Positions 10,378 to 47,683 of a stretch of 64,000 nt of DNA are shown here, one piece after another; position 1 is the first letter of the stretch; each line of letters starts with the position of its first letter. A model generated the notes under the pieces. It was not told the origin of the DNA and did no database searches. It was given only the letters and a program-made list of their open reading frames with translations. Source of the stretch: a virus (Duplodnaviria > Caudoviricetes); IMG/VR virus record IMGVR_UViG_3300029288_000084, positions 1 to 64,000 of that record; one strand, 5' to 3'. Both the position numbers and the translations under genes were made by a program.

Positions 10378-10889
10378 TTTACTTTCACTATATCCTTTAA
10401 AACTTCACTTGGTAATCCAATATAAACACAATTACTACTTGCAAAATAAATACATTCAGAAAATTTTATTTTACTTTGTAATATCAATTCAAACATTTTA
10501 AAACTATTGTTTGATTTTATAATTGCTGATTTTCCATATTTTAATTGACTATATCTTGGCAATCCCATCATTACACCAATTTCATTATCAACAATACCAC
10601 AAATTATTTTCAAATTGGAATTGATTAAATTTTCGATAGGTATTAGCAATTCATTACACAACCTTTTTAAATTAAAGATATTTCTAGCATCTTGGCCCCA
10701 CATTCTGTTTACTTTTAAAATTTTCTTTTTATCTTTTTCATCAAAGTGAATTAATTTCAAGCATGAATCTGTAAATTGTTGAATTTTAAAATTCCCTGCT
10801 ACAACAAAATTATTACAGAGATTTGATCGATAAACAGAATCTTCTAATTCAACATAATTGATTGACAAGTTATTTGGGGTAGTAGACAT
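10374..10889 (-). CDS. hypothetical protein (possibly peptidase M15-like)
   Basis: LCNNF..NF...F, NLKRLCNELLIPIE..LKIICG resemble the Peptidase_M15_3 N-part; catalytic motifs not seen. Confidence 0.35.
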   Translation of the reverse strand: MSTTPNNLSINYVELEDSVYRSNLCNNFVVAGNFKIQQFTDSCLKLIHFDEKDKKKILKVNRMWGQDARNIFNLKRLCNELLIPIENLINSNLKIICGIVDNEIGVMMGLPRYSQLKYGKSAIIKSNNSFKMFELILQSKIKFSECIYFASSNCVYIGLPSEVLKDIVKVK

Positions 10890-11106
10890 CTTTGGTTAAT
10901 TCAATTTGGAGATATGGATAAGATTCAACATAGTGATCTGAATCAAACCTTCTTTCTGTTTGACAATGTCTTATAGCACAAATTTTTAACATTGTTTTTT
11001 GACAATTCAAAATACATTCAACCATATCACCTATTTGTGGCCTACAACACATTTCAGTGACTGTTGGACGAAAATTATCAAGATTACTATGACAAATTAC
11101 TTTCAT
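10870..11106 (-). CDS. hypothetical early protein
   Basis: AGGAG RBS after early promoter copy 2. Confidence 0.6.
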   Translation of the reverse strand: MKVICHSNLDNFRPTVTEMCCRPQIGDMVECILNCQKTMLKICAIRHCQTERRFDSDHYVESYPYLQIELTKDVYYPK

Positions 11107-11115
11107 TTAATCTCC

Positions 11116-11160
11116 TACAATAATATTATAATATAGATTTGTGGAAAAACAATAGAAAAA
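11116..11160 (-). promoter_or_regulatory. early-type promoter, repeat copy 2
   Basis: TTGTTT-N16-TATAAT-ATTATTGTA; differs from copy 1 by one A in the spacer. Confidence 0.8.
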
Positions 11161-11167
11161 TAAATTT

Positions 11168-11497
11168 TTATACATTTTGAATTTCTTTCTCACTCCATTC
11201 AAACAATTTTACTTTACTTTCATCTTCTAGACATAAAAAAATGCAAGGACCAGAAAACCACTCAACCGCTTGAACAATTTCTTTTACTTTTTTACCACTA
11301 CAGAGAATATATTCGTGAAGTTCAGGCCCATCATCGAACATTCCAGTGTCAGCAGCTGAAGCATATACATTTTGTGCCATACGAGTTTGTGTTGGCTTTC
11401 CACAATGGGGGCATGGATTAGATGGTACTTGTTGAACATTTTCGTTTATATATTGTTGAGCTTTTTCTGTTAAACCTATAATTTGTGTGCAACGCAT
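11168..11497 (-). CDS. hypothetical protein (CPHCG)
   Basis: ORF with RBS. Confidence 0.55.
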   Translation of the reverse strand: MRCTQIIGLTEKAQQYINENVQQVPSNPCPHCGKPTQTRMAQNVYASAADTGMFDDGPELHEYILCSGKKVKEIVQAVEWFSGPCIFLCLEDESKVKLFEWSEKEIQNV

Positions 11498-11499
11498 TT

Positions 11500-15072: not shown

Positions 15073-15077
15073 TTTTA

Positions 15078-15161
15078 TGCCCAGAGAGGGATTCGAACCC
15101 TCATGATCGTAAGATCCACAGATTTTAAGTCTGTTGCCTAAACCAATTCGGCTACCTGGGC
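15078..15161 (-). tRNA. tRNA-Leu(UAA)
   Basis: GCCCAGG acceptor, ACAGA-CT-TAA-AA-TCTGT anticodon arm, long variable arm, GGTTCGAATCC, A73; CCA not encoded. Confidence 0.93.
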
Positions 15162-15164
15162 ATT

Positions 15165-15636: not shown

Positions 15637-15710
15637 TGCCACTGAAAGGATTTGAACCTTTGTTAGGCGATTATAGATCGCTCGTTCTAACCAAACTAAA
15701 CTACAGCGGC
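15637..15710 (-). tRNA. tRNA-Ile(UAU)-like with non-canonical C33
   Basis: GCCGCTG/CAGTGGC-A acceptor, GTTT..GAAC D-stem, anticodon loop TC-TAT-AA, AAAGG-TTCAAAT-CCTTT T-arm. Confidence 0.75.
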
Positions 15711-31578: not shown

Positions 31579-31609
31579 ATTATAATGTATTTATATGAAA
31601 AATTTAGTA
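31579..31609 (-). promoter_or_regulatory. TACTAAAT-N17-TATAAT promoter (class II) with an embedded TATAAATA
   Basis: exact motif; upstream of the uvsX-41 string. Confidence 0.8.
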
Positions 31610-32545
31610 AAACAATGAATCAATTTTCATAGTTTTATCATTTAAAGCTACAATTATATCATAATTGCAAGCTTTCGTTAAAATATTGACGGCTGACAAG
31701 AAACTCTTTTCATATTGCACATCGTAATCAATGTATTGATCAAAATTGAATTCTTTTGGTAATTTGTCTAAAAATGCTATAATATTTTCATTGTTATTTA
31801 AATTTGGCACTTTCAAATATAAGAATTTAATTCGATCACCCGAATAGATTTTTTTGTATTTATTTGTTAAATTTAACCTATCGAGATGGAAATTATATAA
31901 TAAAGCACCGCGAACATGAATTGGTGTTCCTTTTGTAAAAATTGTTTTACTATCAAAATATTTTTCGATATCTGAAATAGATCTCGGAAATGCCATGTCT
32001 TCTGGCTTAAAATTTACAAATTCTTTTTGATAATCTTTAACTACTTGCATTAATTTTTCATTATTATTATCCAAAACAATACCAACTACTTCACGCAATT
32101 TTTCTCGAACAATTTTTGGAGTTGATGTTCGAACTATTTCGATTCCTGTGATTTTGAGTTTTGGCTCATCGTAAACTTTATTTTCATCCATCCATTTTCG
32201 AACAACATATTTTTTCATTGAACACCAGAGACCAACATCTCCGATGATTTCTCGTTTCATTTCGTAAGTATTCTTGAAAACATTCAACTTGAGTGATAAA
32301 GCTTGAAGACTTTTTTCTATCTCTTTCTCTACAACAGTTTCACTAAATTTGTTAATAGCTTTAATTGCTTGCTGTGTTGTTAATTCTTTTGGACTTTGCT
32401 TAATTAATTTATCACAACAAATGTAAACTGAATTATGCAATAAAATATCATTACCAAAGAAATTATGATTATCTTCTACTTCAATATCATAAACATCTTG
32501 TTCTTGTATTCCTAAATCAATAACTTCAAGGGTGGATTGATTCAT
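31604..32545 (-). CDS. 43: DNA polymerase gp43 C-terminal half, preceded by the split-intein C fragment
   Basis: VYDIEVEDNHNFFGNDILLHN|SVYI; MKRE.I, KKY, K.TGIE.VRTSTP, KGTPIHVRGAL.YN, IDYD.QY.KSF. Confidence 0.93.
   Translation of the reverse strand: MNQSTLEVIDLGIQEQDVYDIEVEDNHNFFGNDILLHNSVYICCDKLIKQSPKELTTQQAIKAINKFSETVVEKEIEKSLQALSLKLNVFKNTYEMKREIIGDVGLWCSMKKYVVRKWMDENKVYDEPKLKITGIEIVRTSTPKIVREKLREVVGIVLDNNNEKLMQVVKDYQKEFVNFKPEDMAFPRSISDIEKYFDSKTIFTKGTPIHVRGALLYNFHLDRLNLTNKYKKIYSGDRIKFLYLKVPNLNNNENIIAFLDKLPKEFNFDQYIDYDVQYEKSFLSAVNILTKACNYDIIVALNDKTMKIDSLFY
32432..32545 (-). mobile_element. split intein C-fragment (38 aa)
   Basis: block F VYDIEV and block G HN followed by +1 Ser. Confidence 0.92.
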
Positions 32546-33647
32546 TTAATTTCTCCTTTTGAATTTTAATATAATCAACTAAAAAATTTAGTATTTCTAA
32601 TTTATTATTTTTCCAATCATATTCCCAAACATATAAATATTTAAATCCTCTGTTTACAAGACATAATTTTTTATTTTCATCATATTTCCAAATATCATCT
32701 ACATTATAACTTTTTTTAAAAAAACTAATGATGTCATTTTTACTATAAAATCTTGGGTTTGCATGATAATAATCACCATTAAATTCTATACAAATTTTTA
32801 AATCACTTATTACAAAATCATACTTATAATATTTTTTATTTATTAAATCACAAGATCCAAATTCTGTTGTTTTCGGTACAAAATATACTTTTTCAACATT
32901 AACAATGTCTTTTATTTTTTCAAAAAGAATAGAAGAAAATTCTTTTTGTATTTTTGATACACCGCTACTAGTTTTTTGTATTCTTTTAAAAAATTGTTTT
33001 ATGCCTTCCTCTTCTCCTAATCTATTTATATAATTATCTAATGTAACACCCTTTAATATATTTATCTCATTACATATTTTTAGTCCTTCTATTTTCCCAT
33101 GCTGATCTATAAAATACTGTTTAGATTTCGTATATGCTTGATTTTTTCTATACTGATCCCATTTAATTTTTCCTTCTTTTTCACCATATCTCTTAACAAA
33201 ATTTTCTAGCGTACTCGATCTTTTTTTATTGTAGTAAACAAAATCTTCTTTCGACATTCCATATTTTTTATTTTTATATTCGAATGTATTTGTTTCTGCC
33301 TGTTTCTTTCTATAACTTTCCCATTTTATTTTTCCTTCTTCATTACCATATTTTTTAACAAAATTTTCTAATGTAATTACTCTTGCTTGTTTTATTTCAT
33401 TATACAATATTTCAGGTAAATTAAGTAATTCAATATAATCTTTATTAATTATATTAGGTGATAATGGTAGCCTATTATATTTTTTTAAAAAACATTTTAC
33501 ACATTTAACTCTGTAGTAATATTTTTCTTTGTAAATAAAAGGTATATTATAAAACCAGCTTGTTTTATAATCTTTTTTATTTCTAAATATAGTAAAAAAA
33601 TCTTCAATATCTTGACCACATATTTGACATTTTCTTTTAGTTTCCAT
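32526..33647 (-). mobile_element. free-standing Vsr-like PD-(D/E)xK homing endonuclease inside the fractured gp43
   Basis: three TLENF..RYG..EG..KW repeats; YDFVISDLKICIEFNGDYYHANP...GFKYLYVWE. Confidence 0.85.
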
Positions 33648-33671: not shown

Positions 33672-35777
33672 TCAAATATATATTAATTTATCACTTAGTA
33701 AAATTTCCTTTGGTTTAACTGATATTATAATATCATTTCGATTTACGATAATTGAATGGTCTTCTGTTATTTCAACTTCTTTTCCGTTGTATTTTACTAA
33801 ATACATTCGTTTATTAACTTTATGTTTCATAATATATTTTATTTTTTTTTCTTCAACTTTTCTATTATCGATATTATAAGACAAACAAGTTGTATTTCCT
33901 ATAACATGTTTTATATAATTATCTATCCCTCTAATTTCAATTATTCCAAAAAGCTGATTATACAAATCACTAATTTTAAAATTACCTTGATTTGTTTTTA
34001 CAATAGTATTAAAACCGCAGCTGTCAGTATCGTTGTAAATAATATCAATGTATTTTCCTAGTTTTGTTTTTAACCAATCAGAAACATATCTAATAACCAA
34101 TTGTCCGGTGAGTGTAATAGCAGATGCAATTCGAATGTCATAATATCTAAAATATTCATTGGCAAATGCACCATATCCTGAATTTAACAAGATTTTTAGA
34201 GCTTGCTGTTTCAAATCAAGACTTTTTACTTCAGATTCTTTTCTACCAGCTTTTATAGCCTCTTTTAATTGCTTCTTGATTTCAATTCTTTCATTATATT
34301 TTTTCTCCATAATTTCGCCAACAGTACCTTGCTTATCTCTTTTCCAAAATCTTCCATTTGGCGTATAGCAGTAATTGTACTTTTTAAGAAATTCTTGTAA
34401 TTGTTTATATACTTCGCTTGTATCATCCAATAACAAATCTACAGAAGAAAAAAGAGGGTTCAAAGCTGTATATTCACGCAACACATCAGGTGCAATAAAA
34501 TCACCAAATCGAATTGCATCTGATGGCGATAACCCAGCTTTATTGACGATTGTTTCTTTAGATAAATTGCAACCAATAATATTGTTTGGATATAGAGAAT
34601 TTGCATCATAAGCTACAACCCATTTATACAATCCGGGTTTTACTAAATTTACAAAAGCACCTGGATATTCTTGTTTCTCAGTATGTTTTTTTGTTGGTGG
34701 TATTTCAATATTTTTAATCTTTAGTGCATTGTAAATAATAACATCCCAAAGTTTTACAGGAGAAAATATGTCTCTGTATATGACTCGAGATTCATATGCA
34801 ATAGTCATAGCCAACTCAAGTAATTGTAATTTGTTATTTAGAAGTGAAATTAATTCAACATCCCAAATGTTATATTCAATATACCTTTGAGGATCCTTTT
34901 CCCAAAGTTCTTTTAAATCATATTCATCGTATTTTATTTTTTGTTTGTTCAATTCAACAAAACAGATATTGTCTAACGAATATGATTCTTGTTTTTCATA
35001 TACAAATTTCTTATACAAGTTAATGTAATCGAGAATTGGAATATAAAAATCGTAGAAATTTATTTCTTGATTTATCATCCTTATACTGGTTTGATTGACC
35101 TTGCCAACTGGGGATAATTCAGTTAATGCCCGTTCACCCAGTAATTTATAAATCCGATTTGTTAGATACGGAATATCAAAAAGATCCACATTCCAGCCAG
35201 TAATGAGATCCGGTGATAGAGTTTTAAATAAGAAAATAAACGCTTGAAGCAATTCACCTTCAGAATTCATTTTTTTGAAATTAATCTTTTCTTTATCAAT
35301 ATTGAAAGTAGCCTTTTCTTTATCAAAATCCTTTAGTGAAAGTACATAGAAATTTCCTGTTTTCAAATCCTTTATTGTAATTGCACTGATTGGATAATTT
35401 GCCTTATTAACATTTGGAAAACCTTCTTCATTCAAAACCTCAATATCAATAATAACTGTTTTTACTTGTGAGATATCATAGTATTGATCTTCTTTACCCC
35501 ATTTCGTTTGAATAAACTGATAAATTGGTGAAATATCACCATACAAAGGCATTTCATCCCGATAAGTCTTTACAAAATCATAATATTCTCGAATGGTTTT
35601 AATATGCTTATTTAAATTGATACCATTCTGTGAAATATGACCTGTGTATTCATTTGACTCAGTAAAAATTTCAGCAGGGAAGGGAATTTTATCTTTGAAT
35701 TTTTTCCCGTTTCTATAACCAAGAATTACAAGATCATTTGATAGATTGATGATGTTAGTATAAAATTCTTTTGCCAT
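33672..35777 (-). CDS. 43: DNA polymerase gp43 N-terminal half, followed by the split-intein N fragment
   Basis: DIE, TGWN..FDIPY, YN..DV exonuclease motifs; YDANSLYP, K..LNSGYG, YNDTD|S. Confidence 0.95.
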   Translation of the reverse strand: MAKEFYTNIINLSNDLVILGYRNGKKFKDKIPFPAEIFTESNEYTGHISQNGINLNKHIKTIREYYDFVKTYRDEMPLYGDISPIYQFIQTKWGKEDQYYDISQVKTVIIDIEVLNEEGFPNVNKANYPISAITIKDLKTGNFYVLSLKDFDKEKATFNIDKEKINFKKMNSEGELLQAFIFLFKTLSPDLITGWNVDLFDIPYLTNRIYKLLGERALTELSPVGKVNQTSIRMINQEINFYDFYIPILDYINLYKKFVYEKQESYSLDNICFVELNKQKIKYDEYDLKELWEKDPQRYIEYNIWDVELISLLNNKLQLLELAMTIAYESRVIYRDIFSPVKLWDVIIYNALKIKNIEIPPTKKHTEKQEYPGAFVNLVKPGLYKWVVAYDANSLYPNNIIGCNLSKETIVNKAGLSPSDAIRFGDFIAPDVLREYTALNPLFSSVDLLLDDTSEVYKQLQEFLKKYNYCYTPNGRFWKRDKQGTVGEIMEKKYNERIEIKKQLKEAIKAGRKESEVKSLDLKQQALKILLNSGYGAFANEYFRYYDIRIASAITLTGQLVIRYVSDWLKTKLGKYIDIIYNDTDSCGFNTIVKTNQGNFKISDLYNQLFGIIEIRGIDNYIKHVIGNTTCLSYNIDNRKVEEKKIKYIMKHKVNKRMYLVKYNGKEVEITEDHSIIVNRNDIIISVKPKEILLSDKLIYI
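33675..34022 (-). mobile_element. split intein N-fragment (116 aa, Ser1)
   Basis: starts SCGFNTIV after YNDTD; block B ITEDHS. Confidence 0.9.
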
Positions 35778-35786
35778 TTTACCTCC

Positions 35787-35817
35787 ATTGTAAAATAGAA
35801 GTTAAAATTATTTAGTT
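35787..35817 (-). promoter_or_regulatory. class II promoter variant AACTAAAT-N17-TACAAT upstream of gp43
   Basis: same spacing, then GGAGG. Confidence 0.7.
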
Positions 35818-37018
35818 AATCAAACAAACTTCCTAAGGTTGGTTCTTCAGTCTTTACATTAAACTTTCTAAAATATTCTTTGTGATTATATAATACAGAT
35901 AAAGGTTCATTCGAATCAAATACCTTATCAATAACCTGGAATGCTAACATTGTATCACTTGGAAAATAACTATCCATTACTTCAGTACTACCTAAGTTGA
36001 TAATATTTTTTATCTCATATTCATTTCCAATGAGCTGATACATATTGTGAAGGCCCAAAATAGCATAAAAAAGAGAATTGAATGAATCTTTCTCTTTGTT
36101 CTTCAGATCGAAAATATCCCTCCATTTCAAAAGTTTGCATACAGGACAGATACAAGGTAAATTGGTATCCAAATTCCAATCTGGTTGAATAACAGTTGAT
36201 GATGAGAGGTGAACAAAATTCTTCTTAATAGTATATCTTCCATAAGATGCACTCATAAAAGGTGAGGATGAGTCATATGTTAATTTTACATCCAATTGAC
36301 GTTGATTTAATTTTCTCTGAATGTAAGCAAGAATTGGAATAATCTCCATAGATGAAACACCAAGAAAATGAAATAATTTTCTCCCATCTTTTTTTGAATA
36401 TCGTTCTACCTCGCCTTTTGAATACAGATAAAAGAAAGCAAAGATTGTTGTAAAAGCACTACGAGATGTAGCTGAACCAATTCCCCAGCCACCAGGAAAA
36501 TCAAAATTGTGAACTTTGCCATACCATTCTTCAAAATGATCAAAATTTCGTCCTTGAAGAACATTGAGAAATTGTGTTTTTCCTTTTTGATTTTTTTCAA
36601 AGAATGTCATATTATTAACAGTTTTTTGAAGATGATCGTTGAATTTTTCTTCTAAATTCATCTGACTATCAATGAAAGGCGGTAAATCTAGATTGACAGC
36701 ATAGTTAGAATTATTCTCTAGCCAATTGAAGATTTGTTCAACTATATCTGGTGTGTATTTAATAGCACCTGTGGCTATTTGATATCCACCAGAATCACCT
36801 AAAACTATTTTTTTCTCATCTACAAAATCATATCCATATTCTGTTTTCGAATCCTTCTTATAGTTGTGTCCAGCTGAAATAAGAAGGTATGGGTAATTGA
36901 AAACATTATCAGGATGAGTTTGATAAAATTTTAGACTTTTACCCTTGATGTTATACTTTTTACTTTCACCACCAAGAGGACCTAGAGAAATTGCAGGAAT
37001 ATAAGATATTTGGTTCAC
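35816..37018 (-). CDS. dpdA: DpdA-like / TGT-fold 7-deazaguanine transglycosylase
   Basis: [31 protein letters not shown], CxCxxC...LHN; located between queF and gp43. Confidence 0.82.
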
Positions 37019-38493
37019 ATGTGCCTCGTGTGCAAATTAGCTGGCATTGCTTTAAAATGCTCTGGAACGTCAAAATACAACCTTTTGTGTTCAGCTACAG
37101 TTACAATGCTAATTCCACCACGAGGTACAAAATCACCTACAACACGAATCCAAAAAGGATCCATAACCTGTGTCAAATCTTTACAAATGATATTTGTACA
37201 ATCTTCATGGAAATCTCCATGATTGCGAAAAGAAAATAAATATAGTTTCAAAGACTTAGATTCAACCATATCTATTCTGGGAATATATCGAATGTACATT
37301 GTTGCAAAATCTGGTTGGCCCGTGCGGGGACAATTATGAACTACAATACCATTTGCAAAATAACACTCTGTATCTTCTACTTCCATATTATATACATCTG
37401 CATAACCAGTTTTTTGTACTTCTATTACTTTGTGATTTAGAGATTGTAATTGAATATTTTTCCTTAATTGTTTAGATTCTAAAGATGTTCGAACTTTGCC
37501 ACCACTTTCTTTGATCCAACTTGAAATAGTAGTTGTATCTACATTGAAATATTTAGATAATTCATAACAAGTAAAACCCTGTTCGTATAATTCTTTACAT
37601 TCTTGTCTTTTTTGATAAAATTTATCTGTTCTTTTCATAATCATACTTTCGGATTGACTTCTCAATTGAATATTATTTCTTTCAAGTCTAGTTCTAATAG
37701 TAGAACCATCACAGTTATAAATTTCACATAACTGATCTACACTAAAACCAGATACATACTGATTAATCAATACTTCATCTTTGATTGATTTATCATAACC
37801 ATATCTCAATGATTGATGATGAGAATTATGTTTTGTCAATGACATTACCTCAATATTAGAAGTATTATTGTTGTAATGATTTCCATCTTTATGGTGTACA
37901 GTACCATTCATATTAGGAAATAATGCATTGGCAATTAATTTATGTCGAGCAGTATTGCGAATATTGTCATTAGAACGTTGATCACTAATAATTCTCATCC
38001 CTGGCATTAGTTCACAAGCTTTAACCCATTTAAAATCACAAAATCCAATTTTAACAAGCACTAAATGATTTGGTGTTAATTGTATAGAGGTTTCAGTAAA
38101 TTGATTTTTTCCTTTATTGACATGTCTTGATAACATTCTTACTGTAATAATTTGAGTTTGATTTTGAGTTTTTCGAACATTATAGTATTTTTTTACAACT
38201 GGTTTTCCAATTTTTATATCGAAAGAAAAAACATAACCATTAGTGCCAACAAGTTTTTGAATTGGTACCCCTTTTGGATATTCTTTTTCATTGCAGCAAA
38301 TGTCTATTAGAGTATCACCAGTTAGACACAAACTAGTAAATTCTGGACATTTGAATTCAACTAAATATATACTTCCTTCATGTTTGTTTTTAAATGTTTC
38401 AAGCATACTCGCAGAAGGGTGATCATACGAATATTTTACCTTTTGATCTCCTAACTTAGAAACACTTCCTAACTCTTCTTGTGATCTAGACAT
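37015..38493 (-). CDS. queF: NADPH-dependent preQ0 reductase QueF (160 aa after removing the intein)
   Basis: CPEFTSL|[10 protein letters not shown], QueF motif [28 protein letters not shown]. Confidence 0.93.
37333..38328 (-). mobile_element. contiguous intein (332 aa) with HNH endonuclease in queF
   Basis: CLTGDT start, LTPNH block B, VHHKDGN..NN..SN HNH, HTH repeats, [15 protein letters not shown]|C. Confidence 0.93.
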
Positions 38494-39169
38494 TTTTAAC
38501 TCCTTGATACATCATTATATACGATCTTTCATAAGTATTTAGTAAAGCAAATTGATGTTCTGTACTTCTTTGTAGAAAGTCTAATACATCAATAGCATGT
38601 TTAATAATAACAGTATCATATCCAAAATATTCAGCAATATCAGAAAATTCTCTTAGTAAATCCTTATCACGGTTCAAATCCTTATGTTCAGACCAAGAAC
38701 ATAAGATTCCTTTTGTTCCATCTATTTTTTTCAAATGATGTGGTCTAGAAAGTAACATTCGCGTTAGCAAAACTTTATCTTTGTAAATACGAACCTTAAT
38801 AGGTTCAAAATCACATAAGAAAGGGTGAACACCATGAATTTCACACCTGCCATCGTGATTGAGGAAAATACATTTCTTAAGATTTTTTGAAATTTTTTGT
38901 TGATTTAAAGAAATGATTTTTTTTGGGAATGGAGTATTATTTACATCTAGTACATCAAATAAACTTACCAATTCAGGAAATTGTTTTTGAAATTTACTCC
39001 ATCTTTCACCTGGATAATAATCAAGAGAAACAGGAACACAACAAGCACCACACTTATCAAGGCAATTTTGTTTTCTCAAAAACATTCGACTAAGTAAAAT
39101 ATCTTTATTAATACTTGGTTGTAGATTTATGATATAGTGAATCAATTTAAATGTTGATTGATAATCCAT
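38486..39169 (-). CDS. CxxxCxxCC Fe-S/Zn protein (YkgJ/FliB-methylase-like)
   Basis: CLDKCGACC...CIFL..DGRCEIH..HP..C...P. Confidence 0.75.
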
Positions 39170-39177
39170 ATCTCACC

Positions 39178-40068
39178 TCAGTAATTTATGTAGCGATACA
39201 AATATATTGTTTCGTGTGGCCAATGCTTTTTGTAATTTTTTAATTGCTTATTCAAAACAAAACCATAGTTGAAATACTTTATTCCTCTTTTTCTCAATTC
39301 ATCAAAAAACATCAATCGCGAACCTTCAGAATAATTACTTGGAAATTCCCAAAATAAGTTGAAACTACTCATAGCAAAAGCACAATCGCCCCAGATGTAA
39401 TCACATTCAACACTGAAGGGTTGTTCATTTACTATACCAAGTTTGATATGTGCAGGGAAAAAATTATTGTAAAACAAAATATATTCTTCAATCAAATTCC
39501 AATACTTAGCACCACCAAATGTCATTCTAAAAGTATTTTCATCTGCCAATTTAGTTTCAACCCAACGAGTATGAATATCTTTTGCAATTTGTGTATTATC
39601 TGATGTTAATTCCTCTGATCGAAAATAATTTTTTTTCATAAGATTAACTGGGTAATTTAATTTTCGTGCTCTATCTTTTGCATTTTCATAGTTACTTGGA
39701 TTAAAAATACCGTCAATGTTGTAAATAAACTCTTCTACTTTTGATTTTTTAAATCCAGGAATATTGCCTAAATCTTGAATAGAAAGTAATTCTGATTTAC
39801 TTTTGACTAGAGAAAAGTCAAATTGCTTATTTGGATCGTAGTAAATCAATCGATTTTTCTTTGAATCAAGTATACATATCAGACCATCTAGGATTACAAC
39901 CTTGTTTGTACAAAGTAGCTTTCTAAAATTGTAATATCCAAATAAAACGGGAAATGCCATTCCATGAACATGAAATACTGGATAAGTATTTTTTAATTGA
40001 TCAAAACTTATTTTATTTTGATGCTGATTTAGAAACTTTTGCATTATTAAATTTTCTCCAATATTCAA
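39178..40068 (-). CDS. DUF2156/LPG_synthase_C-like (tRNA-dependent aminoacyl-transferase, GNAT fold) protein
   Basis: EEFIY..., EELTSDN..AKDIHTRW.ETK, GIVNEQP, GIKYFNYG...LKNYKKHWP parallel the DUF2156 motifs DYVY, EPLT.EN..W, IRVDG, GYKYIN...GLRKAKLSY.P (by eye). Confidence 0.6.
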   Translation of the reverse strand: MNIGENLIMQKFLNQHQNKISFDQLKNTYPVFHVHGMAFPVLFGYYNFRKLLCTNKVVILDGLICILDSKKNRLIYYDPNKQFDFSLVKSKSELLSIQDLGNIPGFKKSKVEEFIYNIDGIFNPSNYENAKDRARKLNYPVNLMKKNYFRSEELTSDNTQIAKDIHTRWVETKLADENTFRMTFGGAKYWNLIEEYILFYNNFFPAHIKLGIVNEQPFSVECDYIWGDCAFAMSSFNLFWEFPSNYSEGSRLMFFDELRKRGIKYFNYGFVLNKQLKNYKKHWPHETIYLYRYINY

Positions 40069-40747
40069 CAGCTATATTCCACTCTGCATCGGTTAGTAAA
40101 GGATCCTTTACATTATTCAAATAAAATGCTTCGGTACGTTCAGTACAAGTTCCGCATTTTAAACATGGCCTTGTTTTTCCATTGTAACAAGAATATGTTG
40201 TTGCATAAGGAACATCAATTTTTAAACCATATTTGACAATATCTTCTTTTCTCATCTGTTCAAATGGTGCAATAAACTTGATTTTTTTATATGTACCTAA
40301 TTTGATAGCCTTACTCATTGCTACATTAAATTCTTTACGGCAATCAGGATAAATAGATACATCTCCCAAGTGGCTTCCTAAAATAATATCCCCAATTCCT
40401 CTTGATTCAGCATATCCAGCAGCTATTGCAAGTAAAATACCATTTCTAAAAGGCACAACTGTTGATTTCATAGATTCATCTGAATACATTCCTTCAGGAA
40501 TTTGTTCGCCACTATTGCTAAGCAAAGATGAATTAAAGTTTGCGAAAATTTTCCTAACATCAAAAATATTATGATTAGTACATGTTTGTTTGGTTACATA
40601 TTTAGCCCCTTTTATTTCAGCACTATTGTGTTTAGAACCATAGTTGAAACTAACAGCAGCAACATAGCTATATTTTTTAATACTCCAATATAAAGCTGTT
40701 GTTGAATCTAAACCACCAGATAGTAAAACTAAAGCTGTACTTTTCAT
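40013..40747 (-). CDS. queC: 7-cyano-7-deazaguanine synthase QueC
   Basis: LLSGGLDST, FNYGSKH, VPFRNGI, YPDCR, TYSCY..PC..C.TC..R. Confidence 0.96.
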   Translation of the reverse strand: MKSTALVLLSGGLDSTTALYWSIKKYSYVAAVSFNYGSKHNSAEIKGAKYVTKQTCTNHNIFDVRKIFANFNSSLLSNSGEQIPEGMYSDESMKSTVVPFRNGILLAIAAGYAESRGIGDIILGSHLGDVSIYPDCRKEFNVAMSKAIKLGTYKKIKFIAPFEQMRKEDIVKYGLKIDVPYATTYSCYNGKTRPCLKCGTCTERTEAFYLNNVKDPLLTDAEWNIAVEYWRKFNNAKVSKSASK

Positions 40748-40759
40748 ATTTACCTCACT

Positions 40760-41932
40760 TTATCTTTTTAAATTTGAAAATTCAACTAATTTAAAAAATT
40801 CCTGTTTTGCTGAATCATCTGTTTCAAAAACACCATAAACAGAACTAGTTGTAACTTTGGCATCTGGATCATTTACTCCTCGCATAGCCATACACATATG
40901 CCTCCCTTCTACTATAGCAATAGCACCCTTTGCTTTAATTTTTTGAAATATATTTACTAAATCTTGAGTAAAAGACTCTTGTAATATTGGTTGTTTAGCT
41001 AATAATTTTGCAACTCTTGTTAATTTTGAAATACCTAAATATTTTTCACCTGGAATATATCCCAATTTTATCCAATATTCAACAGGTAATAAATGATGTG
41101 GACACATAGAAAAACAATGAATATTAGATGTAATAATACCTTCATAATGTGATGGGAACCCTGTTGATAGTATACTATCAATTTCTTCTTTTGAATTTAT
41201 CCCTTCAAAAATTTCATAGTAAGCCCTAGCAACTCTTTTAGGTGTATCTTTGAAATTTTCATCATTTACATTTAACCCAAATTCATCTTTTAATCCTTCT
41301 AAAATCAATATAGCTGCTTTTTCTATTTTAGAAATACCAGACCATTTACCTCTTTTATTTTCGTTGTGTATTTTGCTATGACAACTCTTACAAAGTACCA
41401 TAAGATTTTCTATTTTGTGATTTCCTCCCAACCTGGTATCATAATTTTTAAAATCAATATGATGTACCGTTAAGTTTTTAATTGAACCACAACGTTGACA
41501 CTCTTTTCCATAATACTCAAGTGCTCTTTCTTTGTAAGTTTTCATTTCAATATCACTACTGTGTTGTTTAAATTTTGCATTTTTATTGTTTTCTCTTTCT
41601 TGATCAGTAACAACATGGTTTTTTCTACTTTGTCTACGAATATCTCTTTGATTACTATCTTTCATTTGATTTACTGTACTATTTTTTCTAGATTCTTTTA
41701 ATTCTTTAGCTTTTTCTTCACCAAATCGTTGTTCGTAAGTAACCCCCTTTGAAAATTTAACTCTTTTTTCAATTGACAATTTACTTGTAAGTTCAGCATT
41801 AGGAAATTGATTTAAATATTCATCAATGCTTATTTGATGTTCATTCCACAAATGTGTATTAGTAATAATGTGAAATTTTTTGTGACATATATTACATTCA
41901 ACATAAGAACTGTCTACTATTTCTTCTGGCAT
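40760..41932 (-). CDS. folE: GTP cyclohydrolase I FolE with in-frame N-terminal C2H2 + HNH endonuclease fusion
   Basis: aa ~201-390: DTPKRVARAY, SMCPHHLLP, GISKL.R, LQE, HMCMAMRGV; aa 145-190: CQRCG..VHHID..NH..ENL..LC..CH. Confidence 0.9.
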   Translation of the reverse strand: MPEEIVDSSYVECNICHKKFHIITNTHLWNEHQISIDEYLNQFPNAELTSKLSIEKRVKFSKGVTYEQRFGEEKAKELKESRKNSTVNQMKDSNQRDIRRQSRKNHVVTDQERENNKNAKFKQHSSDIEMKTYKERALEYYGKECQRCGSIKNLTVHHIDFKNYDTRLGGNHKIENLMVLCKSCHSKIHNENKRGKWSGISKIEKAAILILEGLKDEFGLNVNDENFKDTPKRVARAYYEIFEGINSKEEIDSILSTGFPSHYEGIITSNIHCFSMCPHHLLPVEYWIKLGYIPGEKYLGISKLTRVAKLLAKQPILQESFTQDLVNIFQKIKAKGAIAIVEGRHMCMAMRGVNDPDAKVTTSSVYGVFETDDSAKQEFFKLVEFSNLKR

Positions 41933-41952
41933 TTGAACTCCTTGTTTTCTTA

Positions 41953-41983
41953 ATTATAATATAAATTTAACAATTATTTAGTA
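41953..41983 (-). promoter_or_regulatory. TACTAAAT-N17-TATAAT promoter (class II) upstream of folE-queC-queF-dpdA
   Basis: exact motif. Confidence 0.8.
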
Positions 41984-42141
41984 TTTTTCTTTGCTATTTT
42001 TTCAGCTAATACATGTCCAATTGGGTAGTGGTGATGTTCCCAATTTGTTCCATTCCATTTCTAACGTTCGCTTGAAATATCACAAATTTCCTTACAAACA
42101 GAACATCTGTAATTTTTTGCATCGTGTATAAATTTTATCAA
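41974..42141 (-). pseudogene. short ORF with an in-frame TAG
   Basis: ...YRCSVCKEICDISSER*KWNGTNWEHHHYPIGHVLAEK; TAG at 42061-42063. Confidence 0.4.
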
Positions 42142-42142
42142 A

Positions 42143-42496
42143 TTAGTCTTTTTTGTTTTTTGCATATAAAATTGCTTCTAACAAGATCAAATAATTAATT
42201 GTATCACCAATCTTTTCATCAATCAATTCTCTAGGATATATTTTATCTGGATTTTTCACCATCTTACGAACTGAAACATATTGTTTAAGCATATATCCCC
42301 ACAAAACATTTTCTGGTGTTGAATCATCCAGTTTTGCACCAGTTCGAAAATTCAAAAGAAAATCATCATCGACAGCATACTCTTTATGCTTACCTGCTAA
42401 AACTTTTCTGATTAATTCAATTCTTCGGTCTAGAACTTCTACTTTAAATTCATCAGTTGTCAATTTTTTCATTTCTATTTTTTCGACTGGGTTCAT
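42143..42496 (-). CDS. all-alpha MazG-like / nucleotide-modification-associated protein (DUF1599-like)
   Basis: K.KEYA..D.L.NF, WGY..K, IDEKIGD.INYLILL. Confidence 0.6.
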   Translation of the reverse strand: MNPVEKIEMKKLTTDEFKVEVLDRRIELIRKVLAGKHKEYAVDDDFLLNFRTGAKLDDSTPENVLWGYMLKQYVSVRKMVKNPDKIYPRELIDEKIGDTINYLILLEAILYAKNKKD

Positions 42497-42498
42497 GT

Positions 42499-42741
42499 TT
42501 AATCCATTTTTGCAATTGCAATACCATTCGGACTGCCTACAACTAAAAATTTATTATTTGTCTTCACATCTTTAACAATAGTATAGTTTCTAAGTGAATC
42601 ACTCATTCTGTAAATTATTGTGAGTTGTTCTGGATTAGCAGCAATAGCATCTTTTGTTGTAATGGTTGTTATGACAAGAAGTACTATAAACATTAAAATC
42701 GCAAAACATACAAAAGTACCTGCAACAGTTATTTTTTTCAT
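42499..42741 (-). CDS. small exported / membrane-anchored protein
   Basis: signal-like N-terminus. Confidence 0.5.
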   Translation of the reverse strand: MKKITVAGTFVCFAILMFIVLLVITTITTKDAIAANPEQLTIIYRMSDSLRNYTIVKDVKTNNKFLVVGSPNGIAIAKMD

Positions 42742-43142
42742 TTTACTTCTCCATTTACTTTATTTTTTGTCCAATCTCTTTGTTTTACTTTTAACCAAGT
42801 TTTATCAATTGCATCTTGTAAATTATAACCATTTCTCCAACAATAATCTGCTAAGTAAATTACAATATCAGCAATTGCATCTTCTGCTTTTTCTCTATGG
42901 TTTTGATCTGTTCTAATTCCTTGTTCAAGTTTTAAATGTGAATGACAGAGTTCTCCAATTTCTTCTGTTGCACCTAACAGTGGCTGATAAGGTTTTGCAT
43001 TAGGAAAATTTCTTGTACTCCATTTTTGAACTTCTTCTTGCAATTGTTGTAGATCAATATTACTGAATCTAGAGGAAGGTGGGTTACCTTTTGGCATTTT
43101 TCTAGTATTACAAATCTTACCAGAAGAATCGTTTGTTGACAT
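42738..43142 (-). CDS. MazG-like nucleotide pyrophosphohydrolase
   Basis: EEIGEL...EDAIADIVIYL EXXE/EXXD motifs. Confidence 0.8.
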   Translation of the reverse strand: MSTNDSSGKICNTRKMPKGNPPSSRFSNIDLQQLQEEVQKWSTRNFPNAKPYQPLLGATEEIGELCHSHLKLEQGIRTDQNHREKAEDAIADIVIYLADYCWRNGYNLQDAIDKTWLKVKQRDWTKNKVNGEVK

Positions 43143-43895
43143 TTAAACCCCCATTTTACTTCCATAAACTAAAACATGAAGACGCGGACTAATAGTAAAA
43201 GGAAATTGGATTGCCCTAGAATTCATTGATAAAATATGAATTCCATTTTTAATAGTTTGTTCATCTGTTCCCATTGGCATGAGATAAATTGGATATAATG
43301 AATTAAACCATCTATCATAATTTTTTTCTCTAAATATTTTAACCTTATTCACAAAATCTTCAATTTCATGAATATCATGACCAAGATTAAAATATGTGCA
43401 ATCAACAACAAATTTCAAACATATATCCAAACCCTTCATTAAACTAGTCGCAACATTAGCAACTAAATTATTGATGTATTCTTCTGTTTGAATATTTCCT
43501 GAATTCAGTAACTTGGGAGATACATTAAATAAAGTGTTTTTAAAATCGGGCAAAACTATAGTTCCATTTGTTTCAATTTCAATTTTCATCTTATACAAAT
43601 AATTATGTTCAAATTCTTCAAGAAAATCTTTTTGTAAAAGAGGTTCTCCACCTGTAAAAACAACATGATCAACACCAAATTCTAAAATCTCTTTGGTGAG
43701 CTCATCATAAGTCATTTTTTTAATATCTACATTTCTGTATGCGGCTTCTTCCATTTTTGTTGAATATTTGGAATCGCAGAAAGTACAATTATTATTGCAA
43801 CCGTAAAATCTTACAAAAACTGCTGGTTTACCAATATTAAGCCCCTCACCTTGAAAACTCTTAAAAACCTCTGTAACTGCTAATACTTCATTCAT
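43143..43895 (-). CDS. queE: 7-carboxy-7-deazaguanine synthase QueE (radical SAM)
   Basis: EVFKSFQGEG, FVRFYGCNNNCTFCDS, VFTGGEPLLQ, IETNGT, VSPK, PRLH. Confidence 0.95.
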   Translation of the reverse strand: MNEVLAVTEVFKSFQGEGLNIGKPAVFVRFYGCNNNCTFCDSKYSTKMEEAAYRNVDIKKMTYDELTKEILEFGVDHVVFTGGEPLLQKDFLEEFEHNYLYKMKIEIETNGTIVLPDFKNTLFNVSPKLLNSGNIQTEEYINNLVANVATSLMKGLDICLKFVVDCTYFNLGHDIHEIEDFVNKVKIFREKNYDRWFNSLYPIYLMPMGTDEQTIKNGIHILSMNSRAIQFPFTISPRLHVLVYGSKMGV

Positions 43896-43896
43896 T

Positions 43897-44394
43897 TTAT
43901 TCCTCCACGATTACTGTATTGTTATTAGTTTCAGAAAATTCTAATCTAACGATTTTGAGATTTTGATTTATAAGCGGAAGAATTGTATTTTTTATGAAAT
44001 TAAACATAAACATTGCAATCACTTCAGAAGAAATATTTTTTTGTTTTAACACAACCAATCTAGGATTTCCATATATCATGTAATCATTATCTTTCATCTG
44101 AATTTCTACCAATTCGGGATCTACAAACTTATCAATTTCAGTATCTTCTAAACTAATGATCATAGCGTGATCAAAACAATCAATAAAATCTTTGATTGGT
44201 TTTAGTTCAGTAAAATCAATAACCATATTCAAATCATCAACTAAAGTATATTTTCTACGAATATAAACTTTTACAATACCAGAATGCCCATGAAAGCTTC
44301 TACACCGAGCTTCGGGATTGTATTTGGTAATTTTTTGATTTTCAATATGATGCGCATATTCCATCTGATATGACTTGCAAATAGTTACTTGCAT
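43897..44394 (-). CDS. queD: 6-carboxytetrahydropterin synthase QueD
   Basis: EYAH, C.SFHGHS, MVIDF, FDH, SSE.IA, ET.N. Confidence 0.9.
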   Translation of the reverse strand: MQVTICKSYQMEYAHHIENQKITKYNPEARCRSFHGHSGIVKVYIRRKYTLVDDLNMVIDFTELKPIKDFIDCFDHAMIISLEDTEIDKFVDPELVEIQMKDNDYMIYGNPRLVVLKQKNISSEVIAMFMFNFIKNTILPLINQNLKIVRLEFSETNNNTVIVEE

Positions 44395-44442: not shown

Positions 44443-45120
44443 TTAAAGCGGTTTTATTTGTGCATTTTGATTTGACATCTTAACAAGTTTCAACTGAGTT
44501 GACTCTCCGCCAAGAGTGTCTAATGCATAAGTACCTGCTAAATGTTTTCTTGCACCTGCATTGTATTTTCTCAAGGCTTCTATCATATTTCCATTTTCTT
44601 CCTGTTCATATATATGCAACACCTCAACACCAAGATAAGTTCCATAATCAATTTCCTGCATTCTTGAAATATCAATTTTCAATTCTTCATGCCATACTGG
44701 GTACATCACTTGCATTATACCTACAGCCCCAGCAGGCGAAATAGCAAATGGATTGTGACGAGTTTCAACATACTGAACATTCATAATAAGAGCAGGAGTG
44801 ATCTTTGGATATTTTTGACCATACTTCCATGCTGCATCAAGACATTCAGAAAGAGTTGGATTTTTCTTTGCATAATATTCTTCTTTAAATAGAAGGCGTT
44901 TTACTTCAGCATTTGCTTTTTCCAACTCTACATTTCTTGTTTGCAACATGACATTGCGACTTGTAAGTTGCATTTCATGCCGAACAGCTTTTTCATTCTT
45001 TTCAATTAAAGATATGAAAGCTGAACTCATGCAAATCAAAATACCTACAAGTAGAAAAGTTAAAAGCTTTTGACCACTTGCCCATTTCGGGTAAAATTTT
45101 TCAAATGAACTGTTTTCCAT
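44443..45120 (-). CDS. membrane-anchored lytic transglycosylase (SLT domain)
   Basis: VET.HNP.AISPAGAVGIMQVM, AL.KYNAG; N-terminal TM plus coiled coil. Confidence 0.85.
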   Translation of the reverse strand: MENSSFEKFYPKWASGQKLLTFLLVGILICMSSAFISLIEKNEKAVRHEMQLTSRNVMLQTRNVELEKANAEVKRLLFKEEYYAKKNPTLSECLDAAWKYGQKYPKITPALIMNVQYVETRHNPFAISPAGAVGIMQVMYPVWHEELKIDISRMQEIDYGTYLGVEVLHIYEQEENGNMIEALRKYNAGARKHLAGTYALDTLGGESTQLKLVKMSNQNAQIKPL

Positions 45121-46960: not shown

Positions 46961-46968
46961 TATTTATA
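46961..46968 (-). promoter_or_regulatory. T4-type late promoter TATAAATA
   Basis: exact consensus just upstream of the endonuclease start. Confidence 0.55.
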
Positions 46969-47683
46969 ATTTCGTCTTTTCGTAATAGATTTGTCCTGTT
47001 GGATCTATTGCAGATTTAAAATCAACAAATAGAGGATATAAAGGAATTTCAAGATAAGATAATAAATTACACATAACCCTTCTAATTTCCCAATGTGCTA
47101 CTCTAGATGTCCGCATTTCAAAAATATGTCTCCATTCTCTAAAATTAGCTGAAATAACAATTTGAGATTTTAAACCAATAGGCAAAATTTGTCGAGCATC
47201 TTCTGGTTTCCATCCAGCTTTCCTCAAACCCCTATAAAATCGTTCTATTTCTTCAAACATCATATGCAAACTTATAGAAGTGCCATCATCTAGTGGTATT
47301 GGTTCCCATTCGTTTCTATGTGGTGGCACAACACATTTCAGTTGAAATTTATCTAAATCTACAAAATCATCACCTTCTTTTGCATAATCAACATAGCGAG
47401 TTGATTCTTGAGAAATAGCAGTTAATCTATGACGAACTTGTTCATGAGTAAACCCTCGAGAACAATTGTTGAATCTAACAGTCATATATCCATGCTCAAG
47501 AACACTTTCATGTCCTCTTTTAATAATCATCAAAATAAATTTTCTAGCTGTTTCTAAATCAATCTTGTCTGTTTCTGATTGATAACATGTTCTGCCAGCC
47601 TTTTCTATTTTGATCATTTGTAGATATAAATCTTCTGGAGAATCTAAAATCTCAAATGATCCTTCGTTTTTTAAGATTTGCAT
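46964..47683 (-). CDS. thyX: flavin-dependent thymidylate synthase ThyX
   Basis: GRTCY, GHESVLEH, RHR..SQESTRY, EDAR..LP, N.REWRH..R....AHWEIR. Confidence 0.95.
   Translation of the reverse strand: MQILKNEGSFEILDSPEDLYLQMIKIEKAGRTCYQSETDKIDLETARKFILMIIKRGHESVLEHGYMTVRFNNCSRGFTHEQVRHRLTAISQESTRYVDYAKEGDDFVDLDKFQLKCVVPPHRNEWEPIPLDDGTSISLHMMFEEIERFYRGLRKAGWKPEDARQILPIGLKSQIVISANFREWRHIFEMRTSRVAHWEIRRVMCNLLSYLEIPLYPLFVDFKSAIDPTGQIYYEKTKL

Follow-up and report, generated by a model that had tools for sequence, protein, structure and literature searches.

The phage 7-deazaguanine DNA modification systems described to date bring together a transglycosylase (DpdA1-4) with FolE, QueD, QueE and QueC, with QueF, and with tailoring by DpdM or DpdN (Hutinet 2019, PMC6884629; Cui 2023, PMC10516641). 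In these systems the tailorings of the amine are a methyl group, added by DpdM, and a formyl group, added by the PurN-like DpdN. The locus considered here lies in positions 1 to 64,000 of the IMG/VR record IMGVR_UViG_3300029288_000084, a 64,000-nucleotide (nt) stretch referred to below as the window, which belongs to a 152,932-bp single-contig phage genome of 30.5% guanine plus cytosine content from an uncultured metagenomic assembly. Like the known systems the window encodes a complete pathway to preQ0, as well as QueF, a candidate DpdA of the tRNA-guanine transglycosylase (TGT) superfamily and an ortholog of DpdM; unlike them it also has a DUF2156/Fem-type transferase, here called X, which is absent from the phages in which dPreQ1, mdPreQ1 or fdPreQ1 (preQ1 in DNA and its methyl and formyl derivatives) have been measured. 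Furthermore, the window DpdA falls clearly in no described subfamily and is no more than 26-28% identical to proteins of cultured phages.

We class the locus among the 7-deazaguanine DNA modification systems, with X as a candidate tailoring enzyme of a new class. Our best reading of X is that it is an aminoacyl-tRNA-dependent N-aminoacyltransferase of preQ1, a reading to which we would give about an even chance, and which draws on the predicted fold of X and its conserved motifs, on the company its gene keeps in other phages and on its natural fusion to a TGT-fold protein.

The fold and family of X

X most likely starts at ATG 40044 and not at TTG 40068, where the preliminary description had placed the start, because its homologs all begin at the MQKF/MQNF methionine. 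Close relatives are rare, with only three among 5.8 billion proteins, and the family as a whole comprises 114 clusters at 50% identity in an exhaustive HMMER search; an alignment of 82 sequences with a mean identity of 25% was used for the motifs and for the AlphaFold2 model. That X is a mis-called frame or a decayed gene was considered and rejected, as there are homologs of conserved length at 75, 62, 48, 43 and 34% identity and the predicted fold is very confident.

The model (predicted local distance difference test, pLDDT, 96.9; predicted template modelling (TM) score, pTM, 0.92) has a GNAT half on either side of a long connecting helix, the dupli-GNAT arrangement. Leading Foldseek/VIA matches are the stand-alone DUF2156 protein 2hqy (structural-match value 19.1), FemX (16.2), the C-domains of MprF/A-PGS/L-PGS (14.4-16.0), Sba18/Sbb17, which are aminoacyl-tRNA-dependent peptide synthases solved with streptothrisamine (15.0-15.6), FemA (15.3) and the FemX of Weissella (14.6-15.2). 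In sequence terms PF09924 is matched by six of the 82 family members (best E 5e-6), the family profile aligns to L-PGS 4v36 over the motifs GKKR..LR, DEW..K and dL..P...fNxG (E 0.005), and the neighbours of X in the ESM Atlas are LPG_synthase_C and FemAB clusters; NCBIfam returned only noise for the family, and a fold search of BFVD only weak matches (TM at most 0.53). On its model and its family profile X can thus be placed, as a divergent member, in the structural class of DUF2156/Fem proteins. The preliminary description had read a DUF2156 pattern directly in the protein, and this likeness stands at the level of fold and family profile but not as a Pfam match of the protein itself; the dupli-GNAT fold it expected is what the model gives, with 2hqy, MprF and FemX/FemA among the top matches.

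With the DUF2156/LPG_synthase_C transferases (the MprF C-domain, A-PGS/L-PGS 4v34-36, ErdS and 2hqy) X shares the double-GNAT fold, the basic helix and the motifs GKKR..R, W..K and NxG...FK. Unlike the MprF-type enzymes, however, it is soluble and stand-alone, has neither a flippase nor an aminoacyl-tRNA synthetase domain and lies below the Pfam thresholds, and unlike the lipid enzymes of DUF2156 it has a gene context that points to a nucleobase or DNA as acceptor. The Fem-type and natural-product amide synthases (FemX/FemA; Orf11, VlmA, PacB and DhpH; Sba18/Sbb17, 9wqw-9wqy) are only 6-11% identical to X and have other acceptors, and none of them is linked to the synthesis of a nucleic-acid base as X is.

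In transferases of the DUF2156/Fem type the acceptor arm of the tRNA is bound by a positively charged helix, alpha(+), that lies between GNAT domains I and II (PMC7334510). The inter-domain helix of X (residues 122-138) carries lysine or arginine at positions 123, 124, 125 and 128 in 72, 62, 63 and 62 of the 82 sequences respectively, and has almost no acidic residues. A conserved C-terminal lysine of the catalytic site is described for FemX (Lys305) and DhpH-C (Lys329) (PMC12945691), and K272 of X, within a (F/Y)-K-x-H-x-P motif, is invariant in all 82 sequences. K272 belongs to a set of putative active-site and tRNA-helix residues that are strongly conserved across the alignment, the others being W161, K165, N259, G261, E105 and H27.

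These features bear upon the possibility that X instead uses acyl-CoA to acylate the amine of preQ1, giving for example N-acetyl-preQ1 in DNA with no part played by tRNA. Such an activity would be compatible with the linkage of the genes, but all 23 of the 23 best structural matches are aminoacyl-tRNA transferases, with clearly better Z and root-mean-square deviation (rmsd), whereas the acyl-CoA tandem GNATs follow only after a gap (at most 12.9) and with a clearly worse rmsd. Furthermore the [QR]xxGx[GA] pyrophosphate loop for CoA is missing from the window X and occurs anywhere in only 8 of the 82 members, and the conserved basic inter-domain helix combined with the (F/Y)-K motif is typical of tRNA-dependent enzymes. 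An acyl-CoA donor seems to us unlikely, and from the fold and motifs we infer that the donor would be an aminoacyl-tRNA.

Gene contexts of X and its fusion to a transglycosylase

The surroundings of X were examined in 14 non-redundant contexts (designated by L numbers where they need to be told apart), with family members from 75% down to ~25% identical to X, and in ten of the 14 there are clear 7-deazaguanine genes next to X or in its vicinity (Table 1). QueF is found in 7 of the 14, and in three others the contig ends before a possible QueF. The phages that bear X have DNA polymerase B (PolB), PolA or PolIII-alpha, and three different types of DpdA. The transglycosylases thus vary whilst the company of the enzyme that makes the amine is constant, as one would expect were the amine the target of X. 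Co-occurrence with queF and dpdA had been proposed in the preliminary description as a check on X, and homologs down to 25% identity do adjoin queC, queF, dpdM or dpdA, in varied orders and in varied types of phage.

Table 1. Order of 7-deazaguanine genes in the ten X contexts that clearly carry them
Context	Gene order	Remarks
Window	QueD-QueE-...-FolE-QueC-X-DpdM-QueF-DpdA	
L004	As in the window	Order followed until the contig ends
L003	QueD-QueE-FolE-X-DpdM-DpdA-QueC-QueF	
L001	FolE-..-QueC-X-QueF-DpdA1-like	PolA phage
L005	QueC-QueF-QueD-?-QueE-FolE-X	
L011	QueE-FolE-..-X-DpdA(TGT-fold)-AAA_28-QueF-DpdM-QueC	
L015	QueD-QueE-..-FolE-..-MazG-[X fused to DpdA]-DpdM-AAA_28-QueF	PolIII-alpha phage
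L014	X-DpdM	
L018	X-DpdM-QueC	
L019	QueC-QueF-X-DpdA	

Three further contexts are contigs of at most 5 kb with no deazaguanine gene, their orders being ParB_N-X-Dam-like (L006), ParB_N-X (L007) and DUF932-246 aa-X. In the first two (L006:226-2166 and L007:2995-4875), on contigs too short to reveal que genes further off, X belongs to a more distant sub-lineage (28-34% identity) and lies beside a ParB_N protein, and in L006 also beside a phage Dam-like methylase domain; a ParB-like gene likewise adjoins the DpdA of Cellulophaga phage phiSM (L009). Two other neighbours were observed in the deazaguanine contexts. Two different cluster arrangements share a small gene for an AAA_28 protein (dNK-like kinase), placed between QueF and the gene for DpdA or DpdM (L011:11486-12028 and L015:12474-13031), and in L019 pyruvate-kinase-like and adenylosuccinate-synthetase (PurA/PurZ-like) genes stand just upstream of QueC-QueF-X-DpdA (L019:1767-4071), so that this phage may combine a change in the purine pathway, for example 2-aminoadenine, with deazaguanine modification.

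Searches for related loci with the single X protein found nothing in IMG/VR; with the X alignment (A2) they found two loci in IMG/VR and a single, identical fragment among the JGI metagenomes, and GTDB genomes yielded none. No relative of X was found among 50,697 GenBank phages by megablast of the locus or by tblastn of X and of the X of L011. A profile search of phiSM also found no X, and for this phage only dPreQ1 and mdPreQ1 have been reported (PMC10516641).

The closest tie between X and a transglycosylase is a natural fusion. In the protein P0052 (586 amino acids (aa)), recovered from two independent samples, an X domain gives way within ~10 residues to a second domain (residues ~318-586) that is 48% identical to the open reading frame (ORF) after X in L011, a gene of 263 aa (L011 positions 10708-11499). 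More than 3,400 proteins belong to this 263-aa family, many of which come from marine metagenomes, and no Pfam model covers it; its predicted fold (pLDDT 94.8) has only tRNA-guanine transglycosylases, with the TGT TIM barrel, among its top 50 PDB matches. Judged by this model and by its place in preQ1 clusters, the family is apparently a widespread type of DpdA, common in environmental phages and missed by current domain libraries. That X and DpdA occur as a natural fusion argues strongly for a shared pathway.

Both linkage and fusion also bear upon two alternative roles for X. It might use aminoacyl-tRNA on some other target, such as a lipid or cell-wall precursor of the host, the N-terminus of a protein or the host's tRNA pools, and merely be co-transcribed with the deazaguanine genes. 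The characterised DUF2156/Fem enzymes do act on lipids, peptidoglycan precursors and secondary metabolites (PMC7334510, PMC12945691), and two sub-lineages of X have not been seen beside queF; however X has no membrane domain, its linkage to queC, queF, dpdM and dpdA survives rearrangements, three types of polymerase and three types of DpdA, and its direct fusion to a TGT-fold DpdA would be hard to explain. We consider such an unrelated target improbable, and somewhat more so than an acyl-CoA donor. Alternatively X could be inert, regulatory or structural, for instance an accessory subunit of DpdA, in which case the DNA would carry only dPreQ1 or mdPreQ1. The fusion could equally mean such a structural partnership, but the strong conservation of the putative active-site and tRNA-helix residues over 82 sequences speaks for catalysis, and we think a non-catalytic X very improbable. 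Aminoacylation of preQ1 by X remains the reading that we prefer.

The rest of the cluster

On the minus strand the genes run in the order queD, queE, mazG-like, two small ORFs, HNH-folE, queC, X, the CxxxCxxCC gene, queF, dpdA and DNA polymerase B (Table 2). From queC through dpdA they overlap or nearly abut, with overlaps of 32 nt (queC/X), 8 nt (dpdM/queF) and 4 nt (queF/dpdA) and a separation of 8 nt between X and dpdM, and the annotation makes the locus an operon for 7-deazaguanine modification of phage DNA, set among the replication genes of a tailed phage. A MazG gene is also found directly upstream of X in L015.

Table 2. Features of the window, from the cluster and its surroundings
Feature	Position	Strand	Length and evidence
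ThyX (Thy1) thymidylate synthase	46964-47683	-	
SLT lytic transglycosylase-domain protein	44443-45120	-	
queD (CPH4 synthase, PTPS family)	43897-44394	-	165 aa; PF01242 E 4.4e-17
queE (radical-SAM CDG synthase)	43143-43895	-	250 aa; PF04055 E 3e-16 and Fer4_12; homologs in such clusters elsewhere
MazG-like pyrophosphatase	42738-43142	-	134 aa; phrog_715 E 9e-10
Two small ORFs	42143-42741	-	117 aa, phrog_6802 E 5e-27; 80 aa, weak matches only
folE (GTP cyclohydrolase I) with N-terminal HNH domain	40760-41932	-	390 aa; PF01227 residues 217-383 E 2e-47; PF01844 residues 145-191 E 5e-9
queC (preQ0 synthase)	40013-40747	-	244 aa; PF06508 E 1.3e-61
X, stand-alone DUF2156/Fem-type double-GNAT transferase	39178-40044	-	288 aa; candidate preQ1 N-aminoacyltransferase
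dpdM ortholog (CxxxCxxCC/YkgJ-like)	38486-39169	-	227 aa; PF03692 E 1e-5; CLDKCGACC
queF (preQ0 reductase, unimodular), intein at 37333-38328	37015-38493	-	492 aa; PF14489 E 4e-33; Intein_splicing E 2e-9
dpdA candidate (TGT-superfamily 7-deazaguanine DNA transglycosylase)	35816-37018	-	400 aa; family profile and motifs
DNA polymerase B, N-terminal part ending in intein N-fragment	33672-35777	-	PF00136, PF03104, Intein_splicing; aligns to residues 1-576 of L003 PolB
Cys-rich ORF between the PolB halves	32526-33647		373 aa; phrog_22677
DNA polymerase B, second gene, opening with intein C-fragment	31604-32545	-	intein C-fragment (...LLHN, then S), then PolB C-terminus

The preliminary description, made without database searches, agrees with this map in most respects. 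Its gene order from queD to dpdA followed by the polymerase, and the close packing from queC onwards, are both supported by Pfam and PHROGs (dpdA by its family profile), and the complete preQ0 pathway of FolE, QueD, QueE and QueC is upheld by Pfam matches with E from 1e-16 to 1e-61. For two enzymes it was right about the family and incomplete about the protein: QueF has the predicted domain and the ESKSLKLY motif, but an intein at its catalytic cysteine was missed, and FolE is found as described, but with an in-frame HNH domain that had gone unnoticed.

The intein of QueF has 332 aa (residues 56-387 of 492) and sits directly before the catalytic cysteine of the sequence FTSL-CPxTGQPDF, the N-extein ending in EFTSL, the intein running from CLTGDT to VVHN and the C-extein beginning CPRTGQPDF. 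It carries remnants of an HNH_3/HTH endonuclease. When the exteins are joined they align end to end, at 57% identity, with the intein-free 140-aa QueF of L001, and the QueF of L003 has an intein at the same site. QueF would be active only after the intein has been spliced out, and the synthesis of preQ1 is thus predicted to depend on protein splicing. FolE has an N-terminal extension of ~200 aa with a zinc-finger-like motif and the HNH endonuclease, and where this extension meets FolE no internal start codon can be discerned; N-terminal extensions of 120-140 aa occur in the FolE ORFs of L001 and L005 too, and these are of another kind than that of the window.

The 400-aa ORF taken as dpdA has no Pfam match of its own. 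Its identification comes from its relatives, as PF01702 is found in many of its 278 homologs, the family profile matches archaeosine and queuine TGTs in the PDB with E from 4e-4 to 6e-3 (ArcTGT 1iq8 at E 4e-4), and GDSGGxQ, DSS and H324 are invariant across the family, with CxCxxC present in the window protein. It is 51% identical to a protein of L003 that has a weak TGT match in Pfam. BLAST found no pairwise similarity between the window DpdA and either the L001 DpdA or the TGT-fold Y family, and in a profile-profile comparison of the DpdA types (A4 against A3) the probability was only 68% over 95 columns. The ORF is a credible DpdA of the TGT superfamily, as had been proposed for it.

The protein with the CxxxCxxCC motif (CLDKCGACC, with later cysteine residues) is 38% identical (E 2e-28 to 3e-36) to CEPG_00054 of phage phiSM, which has been named DpdM, and the DpdM homolog of Vibrio phage VH7D has been validated in vivo as a dPreQ1 methyltransferase (Cui 2023, PMC10516641). 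By this homology the gene is an ortholog of DpdM, a known dPreQ1 methyltransferase, and the second embedded enzyme of the cluster is therefore one that is already known; the suggestion in the preliminary description that the base might also be methylated finds a candidate enzyme here.

The presence of DpdM raises the question of whether it and X act on one product, a methylated aminoacyl-preQ1 in place of two alternative modifications, with DpdM methylating the added amino acid, for instance, or X acylating N-methyl-preQ1. In seven contexts (the window, L004, L003, L011, L014, L015 and L018) a DpdM homolog lies next to X or not far from it, and where DpdM acted alone mdPreQ1 arose only in trace amounts, both in phages and in E. 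coli (PMC10516641). On the other hand X has no DpdM within 10 kb in L001 and lies beside DpdA without DpdM in L019, whilst DpdM is present without X in phiSM and in Vibrio phages, so that neither enzyme strictly needs the other. Joint action on one product appears to us about as unlikely as an acyl-CoA donor, and it is as an N-aminoacyltransferase of preQ1 in its own right that X is treated below.

The phage itself is, from its polymerase, a distant and uncultured relative of T4, as its PolB is at most 37% identical to the PolB of T4-like cyanophages. PolB is split between two genes, the first ending in the N-fragment of an intein and the second opening with the C-fragment, and a separate Cys-rich ORF lies between them, an arrangement that resembles a split intein whose intervening gene stands free. 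Upstream of the cluster are the genes for an SLT-domain protein and ThyX, the former also conserved upstream of queD in L004. Seven tRNA genes (Leu-TAA, Ile-TAT, Met-CAT, His-GTG, Thr-TGT, Asn-GTT and Lys-TTT) are found in the phage genome, at 15077-15162 and 15637-15710 in the window and otherwise at 120344-138839 of the genome; none lies close to X, the set offers no hint of which amino acid would be used, and it probably reflects AT-rich codon use.

The proposed modification and its meaning

In the pathway that we propose FolE, QueD, QueE and QueC would make preQ0, as follows from the established functions of their families, and QueF, once spliced, would reduce it to preQ1 with its primary aminomethyl group. 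X would then move the aminoacyl group of a host or phage aminoacyl-tRNA onto the 7-aminomethyl nitrogen, forming an amide, and the TGT-like DpdA, acting earlier or later than X, would put the deazaguanine base in the place of guanine in the phage DNA. The acceptor may be the free base, inserted later by DpdA, or dPreQ1 already in the DNA, two forms that we rate about equally; in either case virion DNA would come to contain N-aminoacyl-preQ1, a base whose existence we infer from the genes. The DpdM ortholog could N-methylate the amine of preQ1 or methylate the product of X. The likely benefit would be a bulkier, charged group in the major groove that blocks restriction and other defences that target DNA. 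There is a precedent for the amide in the GNAT-fold Orf11 of the streptothricin-type BD-12 pathway, which acylates the amino sugar streptothrisamine with Gly-tRNA (PMC12945691), and Sba18/Sbb17, crystallised with streptothrisamine, are among the best structural matches of X.

A number of observations weigh against this interpretation of X. The window protein has no match in Pfam (E at most 0.01), PHROG or NCBIfam, the PF09924 match for which a score is shown lies below the curated cut-off, and the alignment to L-PGS at E 0.005 is the best that the family achieves with any PDB sequence. The nearest structure, 2hqy, is without known function, the equivalence of K272 with Lys305 of FemX is judged from motif position alone, and a shared fold is no proof of the donor, as some double GNATs use acyl-CoA. 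The known acceptors of DUF2156/Fem enzymes are lipids, peptidoglycan precursors and small molecules, never nucleic acid, and DpdM would compete with X for the same nitrogen. As to linkage, an eleventh context, L016, has a QueE-like gene 4.3 kb from X and no queF within 10 kb, the ParB_N-X-Dam-like and DUF932-adjacent sub-lineages are known only from short contigs or have no queF within 10 kb, and the search of GenBank phages found no X in a cultured phage.

Other phage DNA bases with amino-acid-like charged groups, such as N-alpha-glycinyl-T and the carbamoylmethyl-adenine of Mu Mom, block host nucleases. The hypermodification of thymidine (T) proceeds through 5-hydroxymethyldeoxyuridine (5-hmdU) kinases together with aGPT-Pplase, pyridoxal phosphate (PLP) and radical-SAM enzymes, and Mom is a single-GNAT enzyme; none of these pathways is known to us to use aminoacyl-tRNA or a 7-deazaguanine scaffold. 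In the literature we found no paper on an aminoacyl preQ1 in DNA or on any other acyl form beyond formyl, nor on a DUF2156/GNAT gene in these clusters, and a July 2026 paper of the same groups as the published derivative lists cites only those of 2019 and 2023.

The broader proposal, to which we give slightly less than an even chance, is that many uncultured phages divert aminoacyl-tRNA to the making of N-aminoacyl-preQ1, possibly methylated by DpdM, which DpdA would place in their DNA, with X and DpdA joined in a single polypeptide in some lineages. The X family is small but recurrent, its 114 clusters being spread over several phage lineages. If the proposal is true, this would be the first tRNA-dependent modification of a DNA base and would add a new member to the 7-deazaguanine series, an amino-acid amide of preQ1 that would itself be a new natural DNA base. 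The tailoring of dPreQ1, to date by methyl and formyl groups, would be extended to a modular group that bears charge, with likely effects on restriction, CRISPR and other DNA-sensing defences as well as on sequencing and enzymatic handling of the DNA. It would also be a new use of aminoacyl-tRNA outside translation that ties the translation apparatus directly to the chemistry of DNA.

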